A stretch of 64,000 bases of DNA, from the sequence record MT446421.1, one strand, 5' to 3'. The notes beneath the pieces were generated by a model, which saw nothing but the letters and a program-made list of their open reading frames with translations, was not told the origin of the DNA and did no database searches. Numbering within the stretch: position 1 is the stretch's first letter; each line of letters begins with the position of its first letter. This DNA is from Escherichia virus TH55. This document shows positions 23,300 to 31,189 of the stretch, piece after piece. Both the position numbers and the translations under genes were made by a program.

Positions 23300-24280
23300 T
23301 TATTTTTCGAAAGGACGAATTAAATGTTGGTTAGCCTTGAAACGTTTAACATAGTCTTCGTGACCCAGGGTGTTGTACATATTAACCACTTCCTGGTAAT
23401 GTTCCCAGGCATACTCGCGGAACCATCCAGAAGTAATGGAGGTGCAGACTTTTTCCAGCGCAATATGGAAGCTCACGGATGGAGAGATATTGAACTCATT
23501 GGGAACCTGCGAACGCTCCAGAGCGAGTACACATGCTTCTTCATAAACCCCTGCCAGTTTAATAATCTCAGGGAGTGCTTCAAATTTTTCACGCGAGGTC
23601 ATAACTTCTGAATCATCTTTCATATAGAACTTATATGCAGGCTTATCAGCAAGCGCCACGGCCTCGTGGATGGAGTCATGGTCAAGGGTATAGATTGTAT
23701 CATTAAAGAAAGTTTTCTTGCCCACGTCTAGTTTAGGGTGACTATATGACAATGTTTCTGCCTGGCGCTGCAGCATGATTTTATGCAGTTCGTCATTAAG
23801 AACAACCCCCTTATTGCGAAGGTAATTAATATGACTCATGGTCTTCAGGAAGAATGGATTGTTCTTCAGGTAACGATGAGACAATTTAATTGCCAGACAA
23901 ATATCAGGAGTCGCCCAGTAAAAACCAGATAGACGGTCTTTCTGAATATTTGCCTTCGCATATTTGAGTAAACGATAACTGGAGGTAAAATCTTCCTCTT
24001 GTAGCTCATCAGTCAGCTCACGAACACTTGTCAATGCGCGGACGATGTACGCTTCAAAATAGGTTTCTTTACCATTGTGCATACATTTAAAAGCTTGAAC
24101 ATCTGGGTTATCCACATGCACATGTTGTCCCATCATCTGGGTTTTAAAGCTATTCCAGGAGCCCTGGTCAGCGATAAAGTCCCAATCAGAGTTTTCAATT
24201 TTCTGACTTTCAATCAGACCAGCGTTATGTAATGCACGAGAACCAATAACTAACATCATAATATTTTCCTCAAATAACAC
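23300..24280 (-). CDS. hypothetical protein (326 aa), weak nucleotidyltransferase-like N-terminus
   Basis: N-terminal LVIGSRALHNAG...SDWDF loosely resembles GS...DxD nucleotidyltransferase motif (spacing atypical). Confidence 0.5.
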   Translation of the reverse strand: MLFEENIMMLVIGSRALHNAGLIESQKIENSDWDFIADQGSWNSFKTQMMGQHVHVDNPDVQAFKCMHNGKETYFEAYIVRALTSVRELTDELQEEDFTSSYRLLKYAKANIQKDRLSGFYWATPDICLAIKLSHRYLKNNPFFLKTMSHINYLRNKGVVLNDELHKIMLQRQAETLSYSHPKLDVGKKTFFNDTIYTLDHDSIHEAVALADKPAYKFYMKDDSEVMTSREKFEALPEIIKLAGVYEEACVLALERSQVPNEFNISPSVSFHIALEKVCTSITSGWFREYAWEHYQEVVNMYNTLGHEDYVKRFKANQHLIRPFEK

Positions 24281-24511
24281 TTAAATTTCAGCAGCAGAGA
24301 TATTAGATTCATCTATCATCTCAGAGGCGGACCCCTTAACGATAGGAACCAATTTGCCATAGAGGTCTTCATTATAAGGGTCGTTGATACAGTGTGCATC
24401 TTCAAAACGAACACCGTAATCAGACTTCTTATAAACGAGACCGTAAATCTTTGTAAACTTAGCACGACTAATTTTTACAGGCTCATCAGTCATTGGGGCG
24501 TAATACCACAT
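24281..24511 (-). CDS. hypothetical protein (76 aa)
   Basis: Preceded by early promoter 24540-24568 and SD GAGGA. Confidence 0.45.
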   Translation of the reverse strand: MWYYAPMTDEPVKISRAKFTKIYGLVYKKSDYGVRFEDAHCINDPYNEDLYGKLVPIVKGSASEMIDESNISAAEI

Positions 24512-24539
24512 AATGTTTTCCTCATTAGTTGACGAAATA

Positions 24540-24568
24540 ATGATACTACATTTCTTTAGGCTTGTACA
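24540..24568 (-). promoter_or_regulatory. T4-type early promoter
   Basis: Minus strand: -35 TGTACA, 17 nt, -10 TATCAT; upstream of 24281-24511. Confidence 0.55.
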
Positions 24569-24614
24569 CTAAATTTCTGCACATAAGTCCTCCTATCACA
24601 TCCTTGTGATTAAA

Positions 24615-24842
24615 TTATTTTCCTAACGAAATACGAGTAGGTTTTTTACCGAAATATTCTTCATAGGAACCATCTAAACGACCTGCTTTAGACCGACAGT
24701 ATGAATCATACTTTTTGTAATAAGTCAACTCTGTATTGTAACGTGGATGTCTATCAGCCATAATAATACTTAACGGCCAGCCTTTAGCATAATCGATAAG
24801 ACCATTTATTTTACGAATATATCTTTTCTTTAATTTTAGCAT
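24615..24842 (-). CDS. hypothetical basic protein (75 aa)
   Basis: Minus-strand ORF. Confidence 0.4.
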   Translation of the reverse strand: MLKLKKRYIRKINGLIDYAKGWPLSIIMADRHPRYNTELTYYKKYDSYCRSKAGRLDGSYEEYFGKKPTRISLGK

Positions 24843-25069
24843 GAGCTTGGGTACCAGATTTTACCATCGGCACGAGCAACGAAGGTGCGACCAGCTTCTT
24901 CACCATAACAAGAGCTGTTCAACCAGTCTTCAAGACGGACTTCGCCGTCATAATCATCAAGCTCGACACCGAAATCTTGAGCAGAAGCCATATCTTTTAC
25001 TTTCTTATACAGCGCGGCCAGTTCAAGGGCAGCTTTTTCTAATTCAGCATGTTCAACAGCAGTAGTCAT
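24836..25069 (-). CDS. small acidic protein, C-terminal W-x-SS-C family member A (77 aa)
   Basis: Ends ...GKIWYPSSC; first of five tandem paralogues. Confidence 0.5.
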   Translation of the reverse strand: MTTAVEHAELEKAALELAALYKKVKDMASAQDFGVELDDYDGEVRLEDWLNSSCYGEEAGRTFVARADGKIWYPSSC

Positions 25070-25078
25070 TTTATCACC

Positions 25079-25309
25079 TTAGCAAGTCATAGAGGAGTTA
25101 AACCAGAAACCCTGGCCATCATTGATGCCGTAATCACTGCGAATCCAGTCATATTCTTCATATTCTTCGCTAGAAGCCGGAATATAACGTTGGAAACGGT
25201 CTGCGGCGTGTAAATTAAAAATTTCACCGGTTTTATCGGCTAACTGCTCACCTTCACAGATTAGTGCACGGATTTGGTCTTCAATTTCTTTAACAGTTTT
25301 AGTAGTCAT
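25079..25309 (-). CDS. small acidic protein, W-x-SS-x-C family member B (76 aa)
   Basis: Ends ...GFWFNSSMTC; helical acidic N-terminus similar to neighbours. Confidence 0.55.
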   Translation of the reverse strand: MTTKTVKEIEDQIRALICEGEQLADKTGEIFNLHAADRFQRYIPASSEEYEEYDWIRSDYGINDGQGFWFNSSMTC

Positions 25310-25318
25310 TTTATAACC

Positions 25319-25516
25319 TTAGCATTCATAAGAGGAGGACACCCAAGAGGTACCGCTAATAGTAATACAACCATTATAAAGCGTAATATGTTGTTCCAGA
25401 TTACGCTGACCGTCAATATAGATATCAGCTTCTTCGCGTTCTTCTTTGCAAATCTGGATAACGTTTTCAATAGCTGCCGCGGCAGTACGGATTGCACAAT
25501 CTAATTCACGAGACAT
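25319..25516 (-). CDS. small acidic protein, W-V-SSS-x-E-C family member C (about 65 aa)
   Basis: Ends ...TSWVSSSYEC; start placed at second ATG preceded by AAGGA. Confidence 0.55.
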   Translation of the reverse strand: MSRELDCAIRTAAAAIENVIQICKEEREEADIYIDGQRNLEQHITLYNGCITISGTSWVSSSYEC

Positions 25517-25524
25517 ATAATTCC

Positions 25525-25806
25525 TTAACATTCAGAAGAGGAGGACACCCAACCGCCATTTTCTAGGTCGGTTGTGTAGTCATGAGTATTAACAATAGCC
25601 CATTCAGGATGACCATCTTCTTCCCAATGAGCAAGGTCAGCTTTCAAGGCGCCAGGAGAATAATAGTCACCGCCCATACCGCGAGCAGGGTATATATTAA
25701 AATGAGTCTCATATTTGTCTGCAATTTCCTCAGCACGGCGAATGGCTTCATGGATTTCTTTTACTGCGGCCAGAAGCTCTGGTTGGTTATGGTTATCATT
25801 CATCAT
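25525..25806 (-). CDS. small acidic protein, W-V-SSS-x-E-C family member D (about 93 aa)
   Basis: Ends ...GGWVSSSSEC; ORF-track frame (160 aa) trimmed to M68 because upstream gene ends at 25808. Confidence 0.55.
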   Translation of the reverse strand: MMNDNHNQPELLAAVKEIHEAIRRAEEIADKYETHFNIYPARGMGGDYYSPGALKADLAHWEEDGHPEWAIVNTHDYTTDLENGGWVSSSSEC

Positions 25807-25807
25807 A

Positions 25808-26098
25808 TTAGCACATCTCAGAAGAGGAAACCCAGGCACCAACAGTAACAACGCCGTTTTCAACTCGCCCGCCGTTGTTTTCAATATGGTGAGCGAACCA
25901 TTCGGAACATTCATAACCAACTGGATGATATGTACGGCCGGTGCCGTAATCACCAGTGCTGAATTCGATACCATATTCATCTGCGATTTCTTCACAGTGT
26001 TTTTCAATTTCAGAGGTCTTATTTAGAAGAGAATAGATGGCTTTTTCTGCAGATTTCTCATCATAATACTTGGGGATAGCAATTTCAATTTTATTCAT
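25808..26098 (-). CDS. small acidic protein, W-V-SSS-x-E-C family member E (96 aa)
   Basis: Ends ...GAWVSSSEMC; shares EEIADxY...F block with member D. Confidence 0.55.
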   Translation of the reverse strand: MNKIEIAIPKYYDEKSAEKAIYSLLNKTSEIEKHCEEIADEYGIEFSTGDYGTGRTYHPVGYECSEWFAHHIENNGGRVENGVVTVGAWVSSSEMC

Positions 26099-26448
26099 GA
26101 TTTACATTCCTTAATAAAGGTTTCAAGGTCATTACGTTTTGTTTTGTCTAGGAACTTATTATACTCAGCCATTGCCAAAGCGTATCTCTTTCGGCTGGGA
26201 GCATTCACGGCATTTGTGTGACAGATATCATACACAACCGGGATAAAATAAGCCACAACAGCCGGAGCAATTATCATAAAGAAGCCCATCTCAATAGGCA
26301 TGACTCCCTCGATTGCAGCCATAACCGTGGTCATTACCAGACCAACCAAACCACCAAGCATGGCAGTGACAATCCCCAATAATAAATTGCCGCCAATATC
26401 ATATTCAGCCAATTGATAAACATGTGATGCAAGACTAGGCCGTTCCAT
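26095..26448 (-). CDS. membrane protein with C-terminal FIKECKS tail (about 117 aa)
   Basis: Two TM helices; C-terminus ...NDLETFIKECKS; start at M32 to limit overlap. Confidence 0.45.
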   Translation of the reverse strand: MERPSLASHVYQLAEYDIGGNLLLGIVTAMLGGLVGLVMTTVMAAIEGVMPIEMGFFMIIAPAVVAYFIPVVYDICHTNAVNAPSRKRYALAMAEYNKFLDKTKRNDLETFIKECKS

Positions 26449-26794
26449 TACGAACCTCCTTAATAAATTCTTCGGCACATTTAATTTTGTGCTCTTCTTG
26501 TAGGGAAACACATTTTTGTTCCCACTCTTTAACTCGTCCACGGTATCCTTTATTCATATGATTTTGATGCCACACATTTATCAAAATCATACTCAGGACT
26601 GTAATAAAAGGAGCTGCGATTATTAGCGCCCAGGCAACTCCAACACTAATGATACTCATATCCCCACAAAGCACCATCATTATAACCCCAACGATGCATA
26701 TGGACAGGGCCCCAAATGCTGGCATAAGGTCTTTATCAATTTTGTCTGCGTATACAAATTTTTCTGGTTTACTTGGCAGATATAACGTTCGCAT
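26435..26794 (-). CDS. membrane protein with C-terminal FIKEVR tail (about 119 aa)
   Basis: Two TM helices; C-terminal ...CAEEFIKEVRNGTA; start ambiguous. Confidence 0.45.
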   Translation of the reverse strand: MRTLYLPSKPEKFVYADKIDKDLMPAFGALSICIVGVIMMVLCGDMSIISVGVAWALIIAAPFITVLSMILINVWHQNHMNKGYRGRVKEWEQKCVSLQEEHKIKCAEEFIKEVRNGTA

Positions 26795-27341
26795 TTTGAA
26801 CCCCTTTAGCATATTCACGACATTCAGCAATAAAACGATTAAGCTTACGTTTCCGTTTACGACCCTCTAATGTATACTCAGCCGCCAAATCAAGAAGCTC
26901 ATCTTTATCATAATTTTTAATATCAGTATAAGTTGGGCGGCGGTCAACCATTCCAAAGTGGTCACCATTTTCCAACATCAAATAACACACCAAATGGTCA
27001 TCATCGTCCGCATTAATAAGCTGCTTATAATCACTTGGTTCATTTAACGCATACACAGAATAACTCAGCCCAGCGAATTCCACTCGTTGAATACCCAGAT
27101 TTACGTCAATAATTTCCAAGGCATCTGCAAAAGAAAGGTCTTCAGCTAAAGCAAAAATAAAAGGCAATTTGGTAGTATCGCCGCGACTTGTTGTTCTTCT
27201 TAAGAAATCATTGGAATAGCCCAAGTCGCGGCGGATTCTATAAAGAACTGTGTTAGTTTCAGTGGCAAGACCACTACCGCCAAACCATTCCACATTTGAT
27301 AAAAGATTATCATATAAAGTCATAATTTTCTCCTCTCCCAA
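26769..27341 (-). CDS. hypothetical protein with C-terminal FIAECR motif (190 aa)
   Basis: Soluble; C-terminal ...RKRKRKLNRFIAECREYAK... Confidence 0.5.
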   Translation of the reverse strand: MGEEKIMTLYDNLLSNVEWFGGSGLATETNTVLYRIRRDLGYSNDFLRRTTSRGDTTKLPFIFALAEDLSFADALEIIDVNLGIQRVEFAGLSYSVYALNEPSDYKQLINADDDDHLVCYLMLENGDHFGMVDRRPTYTDIKNYDKDELLDLAAEYTLEGRKRKRKLNRFIAECREYAKGVQNANVISAK

Positions 27342-27365
27342 TTAGGGGGCTTTGCCCCCTTTATC

Positions 27366-28909: not shown

Positions 28910-28938
28910 ATTATACATTATCCCACCTGGAAGTAAAA
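28910..28938 (-). promoter_or_regulatory. T4-type early promoter-like element
   Basis: Minus strand: -35 TTTTAC, 17 nt, -10 TATAAT plus conserved leader. Confidence 0.45.
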
Positions 28939-31036: not shown

Positions 31037-31113
31037 TGGTCGGGGTGGTGGGATTCTAACCCACAACCTACGGTTTAGAAGACCGTTGCTCTATACAATT
31101 GAGCTACACCCCG
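31037..31113 (-). tRNA. tRNA-Arg (anticodon UCU)
   Basis: Hand-folded cloverleaf: 7-bp acceptor CGGGGTG/CACCCCG, D-stem GCTC/GAGC, anticodon stem ACGGT/ACCGT with loop CUUCUAA, T-stem GTGGG/CCCAC, encoded CCA; T-loop is UUAGAAU (A at conserved C56 position). Confidence 0.75.
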
Positions 31114-31189
31114 GGTGGCCCCATCCGGACTTGAACCGGAAACCTGCCAGTTATGAGCCGGATGCTCTAACCAATTGAGCTACAGGGCC
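31114..31189 (-). tRNA. tRNA with CAU anticodon (Met, or Ile if lysidine-modified)
   Basis: Hand-folded: acceptor GGCCCTG/TGGGGCC (two G-U pairs), D-stem GCTC/GAGC, anticodon loop CUCAUAA, T-arm TCCGG-TTCAAGT-CCGGA; abuts tRNA-Arg with no spacer. Confidence 0.75.

Follow-up and report, generated by a model that had tools for sequence, protein, structure and literature searches.

Small acidic phage proteins with an invariant Ser-Ser...Cys end share a conserved module with the gene of a MenT-like putative nucleotidyltransferase

We analysed a 64,000-nucleotide stretch of Escherichia virus TH55 (sequence record MT446421.1; the window), in which five consecutive minus-strand genes at 24836–26098 encode small acidic proteins that share a C-terminal tail with a Trp, a Ser-Ser pair and a terminal Cys (hereafter W-SS-C). 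Together with a gene at 23300–24259 for a putative nucleotidyltransferase made of two domains of unknown function (DUF), DUF7277 and DUF7275, this array constitutes a conserved module of two gene types, of which it is one half and not a stand-alone unit. An earlier sequence-only reading had put the array forward as a candidate undescribed system; no characterised family indeed matches it, but the array is not self-contained, its other half lying 0.56 kb downstream. A functional partnership between the small proteins and the enzyme is highly probable. Our leading interpretation, to which we assign a probability of roughly 55%, is that the small proteins are partners of the DUF7277–DUF7275 enzyme, either as acceptors of a modification or as modulators of its activity, and that their Ser-Ser...Cys tail engages its active site.

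Results

The small genes travel with the enzyme gene

The partner gene (minus strand, 319 amino acids, phrog_2141) lies 556 bp downstream of the nearest gene of the array, member A, on the same strand, and its product joins an N-terminal DUF7277 domain, the nucleotidyltransferase core, to a helical C-terminal DUF7275 domain. Hidden Markov models (HMMs) of both families were run over all fetched loci, a sample of synteny from about 20 lineages. Independent lineages with one or more W-SS-C genes on the strand of the enzyme gene, and no farther from it than about 2.3 kb, numbered 20 of 20, and the same held for every fetched locus with a full-length enzyme gene. The lineages comprise T-even and Aeromonas phages (Gaprivervirus, Dhakavirus, Mosigvirus RB69, Karamvirus, Tulanevirus and Ceceduovirus), two Phapecoctavirus, Otagovirus, two jumbo phages, four metagenomic contig types (one of them marine), and phages of Shewanella, Xanthomonas, Stenotrophomonas, Acinetobacter and Providencia. 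Between one and six small genes accompany each enzyme gene, upstream of it in most lineages and downstream in two. The copy closest to the nucleotidyltransferase gene is in most lineages an A-type member, that is, one of the subfamily including member A, in which the tail motif is duplicated internally; A-type orthologues adjoin the enzyme gene in Karamvirus, Aeromonas, Phapecoctavirus and Shewanella phages and in metagenomic contigs. Providencia phage PSTCR6 was an apparent exception, in which the enzyme gene crosses the junction of the circular record and is hence unannotated; joining the record ends recovered it (E value 5e-128), with two W-SS-C genes about 0.7 kb upstream of it (loci L003 and L033).

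Per-genus tblastn counts for the two genes were almost equal, at 252/259 in Escherichia, 59/59 in Aeromonas, 18/18 in Shigella, 34/35 in Klebsiella and 34/36 in Enterobacter. Neither gene was found in 5,426 complete E. coli genomes, and the small protein was absent from 72,556 plasmids. HMM searches of the complete T4 genome recovered neither the small genes nor the enzyme gene, in keeping with the sequence-only reading, which had not recognised the family from T4; absence from this model phage may be why the module has never been studied. The T4 genes nrdC.1–nrdC.3 (small, small and 308 amino acids, beside nrd genes as in Aeromonas phages) were considered as a T4 counterpart and rejected because neither HMM matches there or elsewhere in T4.

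This linkage bears directly on whether the small proteins might instead be independent, host-directed effectors, acidic mimics or inhibitors of host defence proteins or of host proteins that bind nucleic acids, diversified by an arms race, that sit beside the enzyme gene merely as shared cargo of a variable region. As alpha/beta proteins that are small and very acidic (median isoelectric point (pI) 4.4), they fall within the size and charge range of DNA mimics such as Ocr, Arn and Ugi, with which they also share a place among early accessory-region genes, and they occur as tandem, diversifying paralogues in a hyperplastic early region, with member B replaced between close relatives. However, neither Ocr, Arn, Ugi nor any anti-CRISPR protein appeared among the fold matches of the small proteins; they have no fold or sequence similarity to Ocr, Arn or Ugi and no DNA-like array of charges, and known mimics have neither an invariant terminal motif nor a linked enzyme. 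The shared-cargo explanation also fails to account for the linkage, because this persists across unrelated phage families with different neighbourhoods. We therefore regard independent effectors as improbable.

Five paralogues with one tail

The sequence-only reading had described five consecutive minus-strand genes of 65–96 amino acids, and all five open reading frames (ORFs) were confirmed at their positions. From the enzyme side they are member A (24836–25069, 77 amino acids, ending ...KIWYPSSC), member B (25079–25309, 76 amino acids, ...GFWFNSSMTC), member C (25319–25516, 65 amino acids, ...TSWVSSSYEC), member D (25525–25806, 93 amino acids, ...GGWVSSSSEC) and member E (25808–26098, 96 amino acids, ...GAWVSSSEMC). 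Members A, B, D and E match phrog_899 (E values 8.6e-10, 1.4e-14, 1.4e-19 and 8.3e-23, respectively), and member C matches phrog_4882 (3.8e-36) with phrog_899 at 0.19. For member C we took the ATG with an AAGGA ribosome-binding site, which gives 65 amino acids; the upstream ATG would give 70. Spacers between the genes are only 1–9 nt long and contain the ribosome-binding sites, and the start of member E overlaps (ATGA) the stop of an upstream e.3-like membrane gene. The ratio of non-synonymous to synonymous substitution rates (dN/dS) against phages SP18, VR20 and dhaeg is 0.03–0.32 over all five genes (0.06–0.08 for member A), similar to that of the adjacent enzyme gene, and these low pairwise values indicate that the five ORFs are real genes under purifying selection. 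The proteins are acidic, as that reading had it, with pI 4.4–4.75 (4.4–4.8 rounded) and net charges of −6 to −12. Their N-termini are hydrophilic, and a signal peptide or membrane anchoring was rejected; they are cytoplasmic, acidic alpha/beta proteins found in virulent phages.

All five proteins end in W-x-(x)-S-S-(x-x)-C, and all fit the definition of the tail that we used, G-x-W-h-S-S-(S/T)-x-x-C (h, hydrophobic) as the very end of the protein; member A has a shorter W-Y-P-S-S-C form. No other ORF in the window carries the motif, and among its 215 ORFs of at least 50 amino acids in six frames, the five that end in Cys are exactly the five members. In composition-preserving shuffles of each protein the tail arose at a frequency of only 0.5–4 x 10^-5, so its recurrence is significant against shuffled controls. 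The Trp, the Ser-Ser pair and the terminal Cys, which the sequence-only reading had called invariant, are so in 38 close relatives and nearly so in 115 distant ones. In the set of 115 family sequences, 108 end exactly in Cys and 6 carry one extra residue; the Trp stands at −7 relative to the Cys in 101 of 114; and the terminal Cys is the sole Cys in 49 of 115, as it is in member D. We rejected the possibility that the terminal Cys codon is a by-product of the downstream ribosome-binding site, because the Cys is kept in distant phages with unrelated junctions.

That reading had also proposed a shared functional C-terminal module, and the tail is indeed conserved, but the similarity extends, most clearly in members B, D and E, over the whole domain of about 70 residues. 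The family consensus (MTTKKEAEKEIKELVKEAEALIKEAEEIADEEGVEFSIGPAYGMGGTYYPKGSEEEDWLESDYGEEEEEGGWVSSSESC; in outline ...EAEEIADExGvxF...YGMGGTYYP...GxWvSSSxxC) covers this entire length, so homology spans more than the tail. A profile search of 1.84 billion representative proteins returned 74 clusters (at 50% identity) with E < 10^-3, every one of 69–119 amino acids, with an alignment that almost always reaches the last residue. Members B, D and E are clearly homologous over their full length, and the block that members D and E had been noted to share is confirmed as EEIADxY(E/G)xxF. Identity between subfamilies is below 30%, with the helix motif AExIADExG kept across them. Member C is a reduced form that keeps the N-terminal helices and the WVSSSYEC tail without the YGxGGTYYP loop; an HMM built with its subfamily left out scored it at 10.2 bits, above all 998 shuffles (maximum 6.5), and at 8.8 bits without the tail. 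Member A, in which the motif occurs twice (internal DWLNSSCYGE and terminal KIWYPSSC), did not rise above shuffles in such an HMM, and its membership therefore rests on its phrog_899 match together with the motif and synteny. The five genes are thus tandem paralogues of one unnamed small-protein family, as the sequence-only reading had supposed.

PHROG 899 and PHROG 4882 are families of unknown function. Sequence searches of Pfam, NCBIfam, PADLOC and the PDB with the small proteins gave nothing significant, no characterised family emerged from Pfam, NCBIfam, PHROG, PDB and fold searches, and literature searches by PHROG number, DUF number, locus tag and tail sequence returned no paper in the library searched that mentions these families, domains or locus tags. 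Longer family members (119–146 amino acids) have no recognisable extra domain. In T4, tk.1 (NC_000866 60346–60549) is a marginal match to the small-protein HMM (E value 0.011) and has no tail motif.

A compact fold with an exposed tail tip

An AlphaFold2 model built from member E and 38 relatives (predicted local distance difference test (pLDDT) 91.4, predicted template modelling score 0.78) has an alpha/beta fold, with two N-terminal helices, the second bearing EEIADEY, followed by a small sheet and a short helix. The proteins had been called helical from their sequences, which holds for the two N-terminal helices but not for the model as a whole. The final strand of the model contains the Trp, and the S-S-E-M-C end folds into a terminal turn. 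Confidence is above 90 for most residues and about 75 for the last six, a drop that fits an exposed tail tip. A Foldseek search against predicted viral structures matched solely uncharacterised family members from RB69 and from Aeromonas, Yersinia, Enterobacter and Acidovorax phages.

The tail and the model together allow us to weigh two further explanations. In one, each small protein would be the precursor of a peptide or cofactor that is produced ribosomally and then modified, with the W...S-S-x-x-C end processed by Ser dehydration and Cys addition, or by an AviCys-type decarboxylation, with the participation of the adjacent enzyme. Tandem precursor-like genes beside one conserved enzyme gene would suit this idea, as would the S-x-x-C-COOH end of four of the five genes and the nearly absolute position of the terminal Cys. 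Yet structure prediction gives a compact, well-ordered fold throughout (pLDDT 91), the body of the proteins is conserved as a domain and not as a leader peptide, member A has no Ser at −3, and the gene neighbourhoods of the module contain no known maturase family, whether lanthipeptide, HFCD or radical-SAM, all of which makes a peptide precursor very improbable. In the other, the tail would be purely structural or metal-binding, with the Trp filling the core, the Ser capping the turn and the Cys and its carboxylate ligating a metal or bridging the subunits of an oligomer. A Trp in the last strand of a confident model is consistent with this, and a single invariant Cys would suit a site shared between subunits; one thiol, however, cannot form a site in a monomer, the family has no conserved partner His or Cys, and the linkage to the enzyme is left unexplained. 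We find this explanation hardly credible.

The enzyme resembles MenT toxins and has a domain of its own

The product of the partner gene matches the Pfam families DUF7277 (E value 2 x 10^-27) and DUF7275 (10^-75), and the same two domains are found in its homologues from phages PE09 and phAPEC8, Aeromonas phages and an Erwinia jumbo phage. Identity across homologues is 44–98%, the lower figure being that between T-even relatives and Phapecoctavirus, and 55 columns are invariant in 47 sequences, which is unusually conserved for a phage accessory protein. The best structural match is MenT1, and the signature of a MenT-like fold (G-S, D-x-D and a catalytic Lys) is intact, with G6-S7, D25-x-D27, E69 and K125 invariant or nearly so. 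On the strength of this structural match and these residues, we predict that the protein is a nucleotidyltransferase of a MenT/AbiEii-like type whose catalytic set is intact. The C-terminal region of about 170 residues has no MenT counterpart and contains the most conserved blocks of the protein, YxHPxL, YDHDxIHE, GVYEExCVLALER and KVCTSITSGWFRE, with an H...DHD...H...D pattern that resembles a metal site; tests did not support an HD-domain identity for this half. For AbiEii/DUF1814 there was no Pfam match even at E ≤ 10 on split domains, and PADLOC gave no match. The gene is often found near tRNA genes, an RNA ligase or a polynucleotide kinase, a setting that fits an RNA-end substrate without proving one.

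Several further features of the enzyme and its surroundings were recorded. C243 and C272 are invariant in the 47 full-length sequences and both replaced in short homologues without W-SS-C partners, a pattern that may reflect either co-variation with the Cys-ended partner or a plain clade difference; in the Acinetobacter enzyme C243 is Tyr and C272 is kept. The window has a tRNA pair, Arg-UCU and Met-CAU, at 31037–31189, 5 kb upstream of the array, and the same pair directly follows the enzyme gene in Shewanella phage Thanatos-2 (L015 4959–5106). In jumbo phages the enzyme gene is near an RnlA RNA ligase and a polynucleotide kinase, and in actinophages it is near an RNA ligase or a tRNA array. 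T4 nrdC.11 (NC_000866 55435–56445) is annotated as a nucleotidyltransferase and does not match the DUF7277/7275 HMM.

Partners of the enzyme: clients or antitoxins

MenT toxins add nucleotides to tRNA 3' ends, and the 7.4-kDa protein that controls MenT1 has its gene upstream of that of the toxin (PMC11375011). By analogy, the small proteins could be antitoxin-like modulators, whose N-terminal helices bind and check a potentially toxic tRNA-modifying enzyme, with the tRNA 3' end as its true substrate, while the tail is structural or serves as a pseudo-substrate plug that is itself unmodified. MenT1 being the best structural match of the enzyme, with its antitoxin encoded immediately upstream, speaks for such an arrangement, as do the position of the small genes, mostly upstream of the enzyme gene, the conservation of the AExIADExG helix motif across subfamilies, and the faster evolution of the small partner relative to the enzyme, which is usual for antitoxins. 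However, up to six partners per enzyme would be unusual for a toxin–antitoxin pair, the invariant residues are nucleophiles (Ser, Ser and Cys) and not typical interface residues, the small proteins have no similarity to MenA1 or AbiEi, and the enzyme neither conserves the MenT phosphoacceptor nor matches the Pfam AbiEii model. We judge an antitoxin-like role unlikely, if far from negligible.

In the interpretation that we favour, the Ser-Ser...Cys tail, which is exposed and held in place by the buried Trp, would engage the active site of the enzyme and could accept a nucleotidyl or nucleotide-derived group, such that a single conserved enzyme would charge a varied group of small acidic proteins serving as carriers or decoys. 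The invariant Ser-Ser...Cys end strongly suggests chemistry at the tail. Several clients or pseudo-substrates fit better than a 1:1 inhibitor because a single conserved enzyme is accompanied by one to six fast-evolving partners with terminal invariant nucleophiles and, in places, a duplicated motif. That the tail is itself the acceptor of such a group is a tentative proposal, which we nevertheless prefer to antitoxin-like gating. A more specific version, phage-specific protein tagging, in which the MenT-like enzyme adds a nucleotide or derived group to the Ser-Ser...Cys ends and the charged proteins are carriers or decoys, is speculative and on present evidence doubtful; such charged proteins might take part in a conflict over host defences that sense tRNAs or nucleotides, for example by mimicking tRNA 3' ends. 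Our analyses establish the family membership, the invariance of the motif, purifying selection, the predicted fold, the synteny, and the fold and catalytic residues of the enzyme; physical interaction with the enzyme, modification of the tail and the timing of expression are inferred. The array may also have a role in host takeover or counter-defence, as had been suggested from its location.

A number of observations weigh against this interpretation. Synteny proves linkage and not mechanism, and in the window two unrelated small ORFs (24281–24842) separate the array from the enzyme gene. The leave-one-subfamily-out HMM gave member A just 4.6 bits, not above shuffles. In the enzyme, the MenT-type phosphoacceptor is unconserved, position 23 being N, C or D and position 24 a Ser in 21 of 47 sequences, and the enzymes closest to it in structure have tRNA 3' ends or antibiotics as substrates, not proteins. 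Neither in sequence nor in fold do the small proteins resemble MenA1 or any antitoxin. Finally, because the model buries the Trp strand within the fold, part of the conservation of the tail may be purely structural.

Shorter homologues travel with a different small acidic family

Homologues of the enzyme of about 250 amino acids occur in Streptomyces, Gordonia and KVP40-like Vibrio phages, where no W-SS-C gene adjoins them. The genes at their flanks belong to another small acidic family, often present as tandem pairs, with an invariant Ser between aromatic residues and the motif GGEGxG...YF(R/K)K.G(Y/W)Y.S(W/Y)..G...EV.P (L020 4630–5328, L021 4454–5214 and L022 3306–3602). Kinship between the two small families was rejected (hhalign probability 0.1%). 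That this second clade travels with a small acidic family of its own suggests that such proteins are general partners of the enzyme family.

Array plasticity, expression and neighbouring genes

Over this region the sequence matches that of Escherichia phage UPEC07 (MW250787), a Gaprivervirus and T-even relative of the SP18/JS98 type, at 100% identity, and those of about 80 related phages at 85–94%. By comparison with the SP18, RB69 and T4 annotations, the array lies between the e.3/e.4 membrane-protein genes and the e.2/nudE side of the nudE–tRNA interval, where the sequence-only reading had placed it. Member B is the most variable between related phages, with 50% amino acid identity to its dhaeg orthologue compared with 90–97% for the flanking members A, C and D (90–95% for A and C), and from sequence comparison it looks like an exchanged cassette. 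Gene junctions are conserved as repeats: a 30-nt repeat at 25317–25346 and 25523–25552 (junctions B/C and C/D; 93% identical) spans tail codons, the stop and the ribosome-binding site, and a 37-nt repeat at 25061–25097 and 25301–25337 (A/B and B/C) is 81% identical. These conserved junctions may mediate cassette exchange and copy-number change. Elsewhere, tandem or clustered copies number two in Providencia phage PSTCR6 and in the Erwinia jumbo phage, three in phAPEC8 and phiWec186, at least three in Pseudomonas phage PE09, and three in RB69. One of the RB69 copies, the member E orthologue, is split by a frameshift into ORF139c and ORF138c (L008 5986–6295), either as a pseudogene or through a sequencing error; the split suggests that members can be lost.

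The nearest promoter-like site upstream on the coding strand, TTTACT-16-TATAAT at 28937–28910 (minus strand), is a candidate early promoter by consensus match. No late (TATAAATA) or MotA-box promoter was found on the minus strand between 22 and 30 kb, and so none lies inside the array. Given the tight packing of the genes and the lack of an internal promoter among those found, the module is probably co-transcribed as one unit, and the packing, the absence of late and MotA promoters and the early-like site at 28937–28910 indicate that it is probably expressed early.

Between the array and the enzyme gene, two minus-strand ORFs belong to function-unassigned families, a basic one of 75 amino acids at 24615–24842 (phrog_7065) and one of 76 amino acids at 24281–24511 (phrog_3723); both are missing at the equivalent position in most other lineages. 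Immediately upstream of the array, overlapping e.3-like and e.4-like membrane-protein genes occupy 26095–26830 (phrog_2330 and phrog_2604), the first of the pair being translationally coupled to member E through the ATGA overlap. Outside T-even relatives these genes do not travel with the W-SS-C family. A G+C-rich hairpin at 27344–27360 (AGGGGGCTTTGCCCCCT), in the gap upstream of the e.4-like gene, has a terminator-like score on the plus strand. The GenBank annotation of UPEC07 is faulty at the part that corresponds to 25525–26098 of the window (MW250787 112441–113014): member E is unannotated, and member D is given a wrong long TTG start that overlaps member E and is named 'tail completion protein'. 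In the same record, member A and another nearby gene of about 76 amino acids are named 'major capsid protein'.

Discussion

The nearest known kind is the pairing of a MenAT/AbiE nucleotidyltransferase with a small partner. The enzyme has the G-S, D-x-D, third acidic residue and catalytic Lys of MenA1–MenT1, MenAT and AbiE systems, and, as in MenA1–MenT1, a small partner of 7–11 kDa has its gene on the same strand, a short way upstream. MenT toxins carry a phosphoacceptor Ser or Thr two residues before the first catalytic Asp (T39 in MenT1, S78 in MenT3; PMC11375011), whereas in the enzyme described here this residue is unconserved, no AbiEii/DUF1814 Pfam match is found, and an extra, extremely conserved C-terminal domain of about 170 residues is present. 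The partner also differs, having another fold, one to six copies and an invariant Ser-Ser...Cys end, and we found no single cognate antitoxin of the MenA1 or AbiEi/COG5340 type. The module differs in distribution too, being carried by virulent phages and absent from E. coli chromosomes and plasmids. With several defining features of the MenAT/AbiE kind looked for and not found, there is a real chance that the module is something new.

Other Pol-beta-type enzymes modify a small protein of the same operon, as GlnD does with PII, MntA with HepT, and CitX and MdcG with the carriers of citrate lyase and malonate decarboxylase. In such pairs a hydroxyl of a small, often acidic protein is modified at an invariant acceptor residue. 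GlnD, MntA and CitX/MdcG are not among the top fold matches of the enzyme, however, and their partners offer a Tyr or an internal Ser, whereas the acceptor that we propose by analogy would be a C-terminal Ser or Cys. RlaP (PF10127) is an RNA-ligase-associated nucleotidyltransferase of phages (PMC7824862) and, like the DUF7277–DUF7275 enzyme, a phage-borne Pol-beta-type enzyme, with a similar association of the DUF7275 gene with tRNA and RNA-repair-type neighbours such as RNA ligase and polynucleotide kinase. The two are separate Pfam families, an array of small Cys-ended partner genes is not described for RlaP, and we rejected an RlaP identity for the enzyme, which has no PF10127 match.

The fold of the small proteins has no known relative, and the enzyme is known solely as two domains of unknown function. 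The module occurs in hundreds of sequenced virulent phages, including those of Escherichia, Shigella, Klebsiella, Enterobacter, Aeromonas, Acinetobacter and Pseudomonas as well as jumbo and marine phages, and many of the phages that carry it are candidates for phage therapy. Our results give annotators grounds for handling the DUF7275 gene together with the small genes, as a single unit. Whether the small proteins act as acceptors or as gatekeepers, establishing their role would assign a function to two Pfam DUFs and two PHROG families. If protein tagging is correct, it would represent a post-translational chemistry and a protein class undescribed in phages. Solving the module might reveal a new protein modification or a new manipulation of tRNA during infection, and it would show in what way a MenT-type enzyme can serve a virus instead of opposing it.

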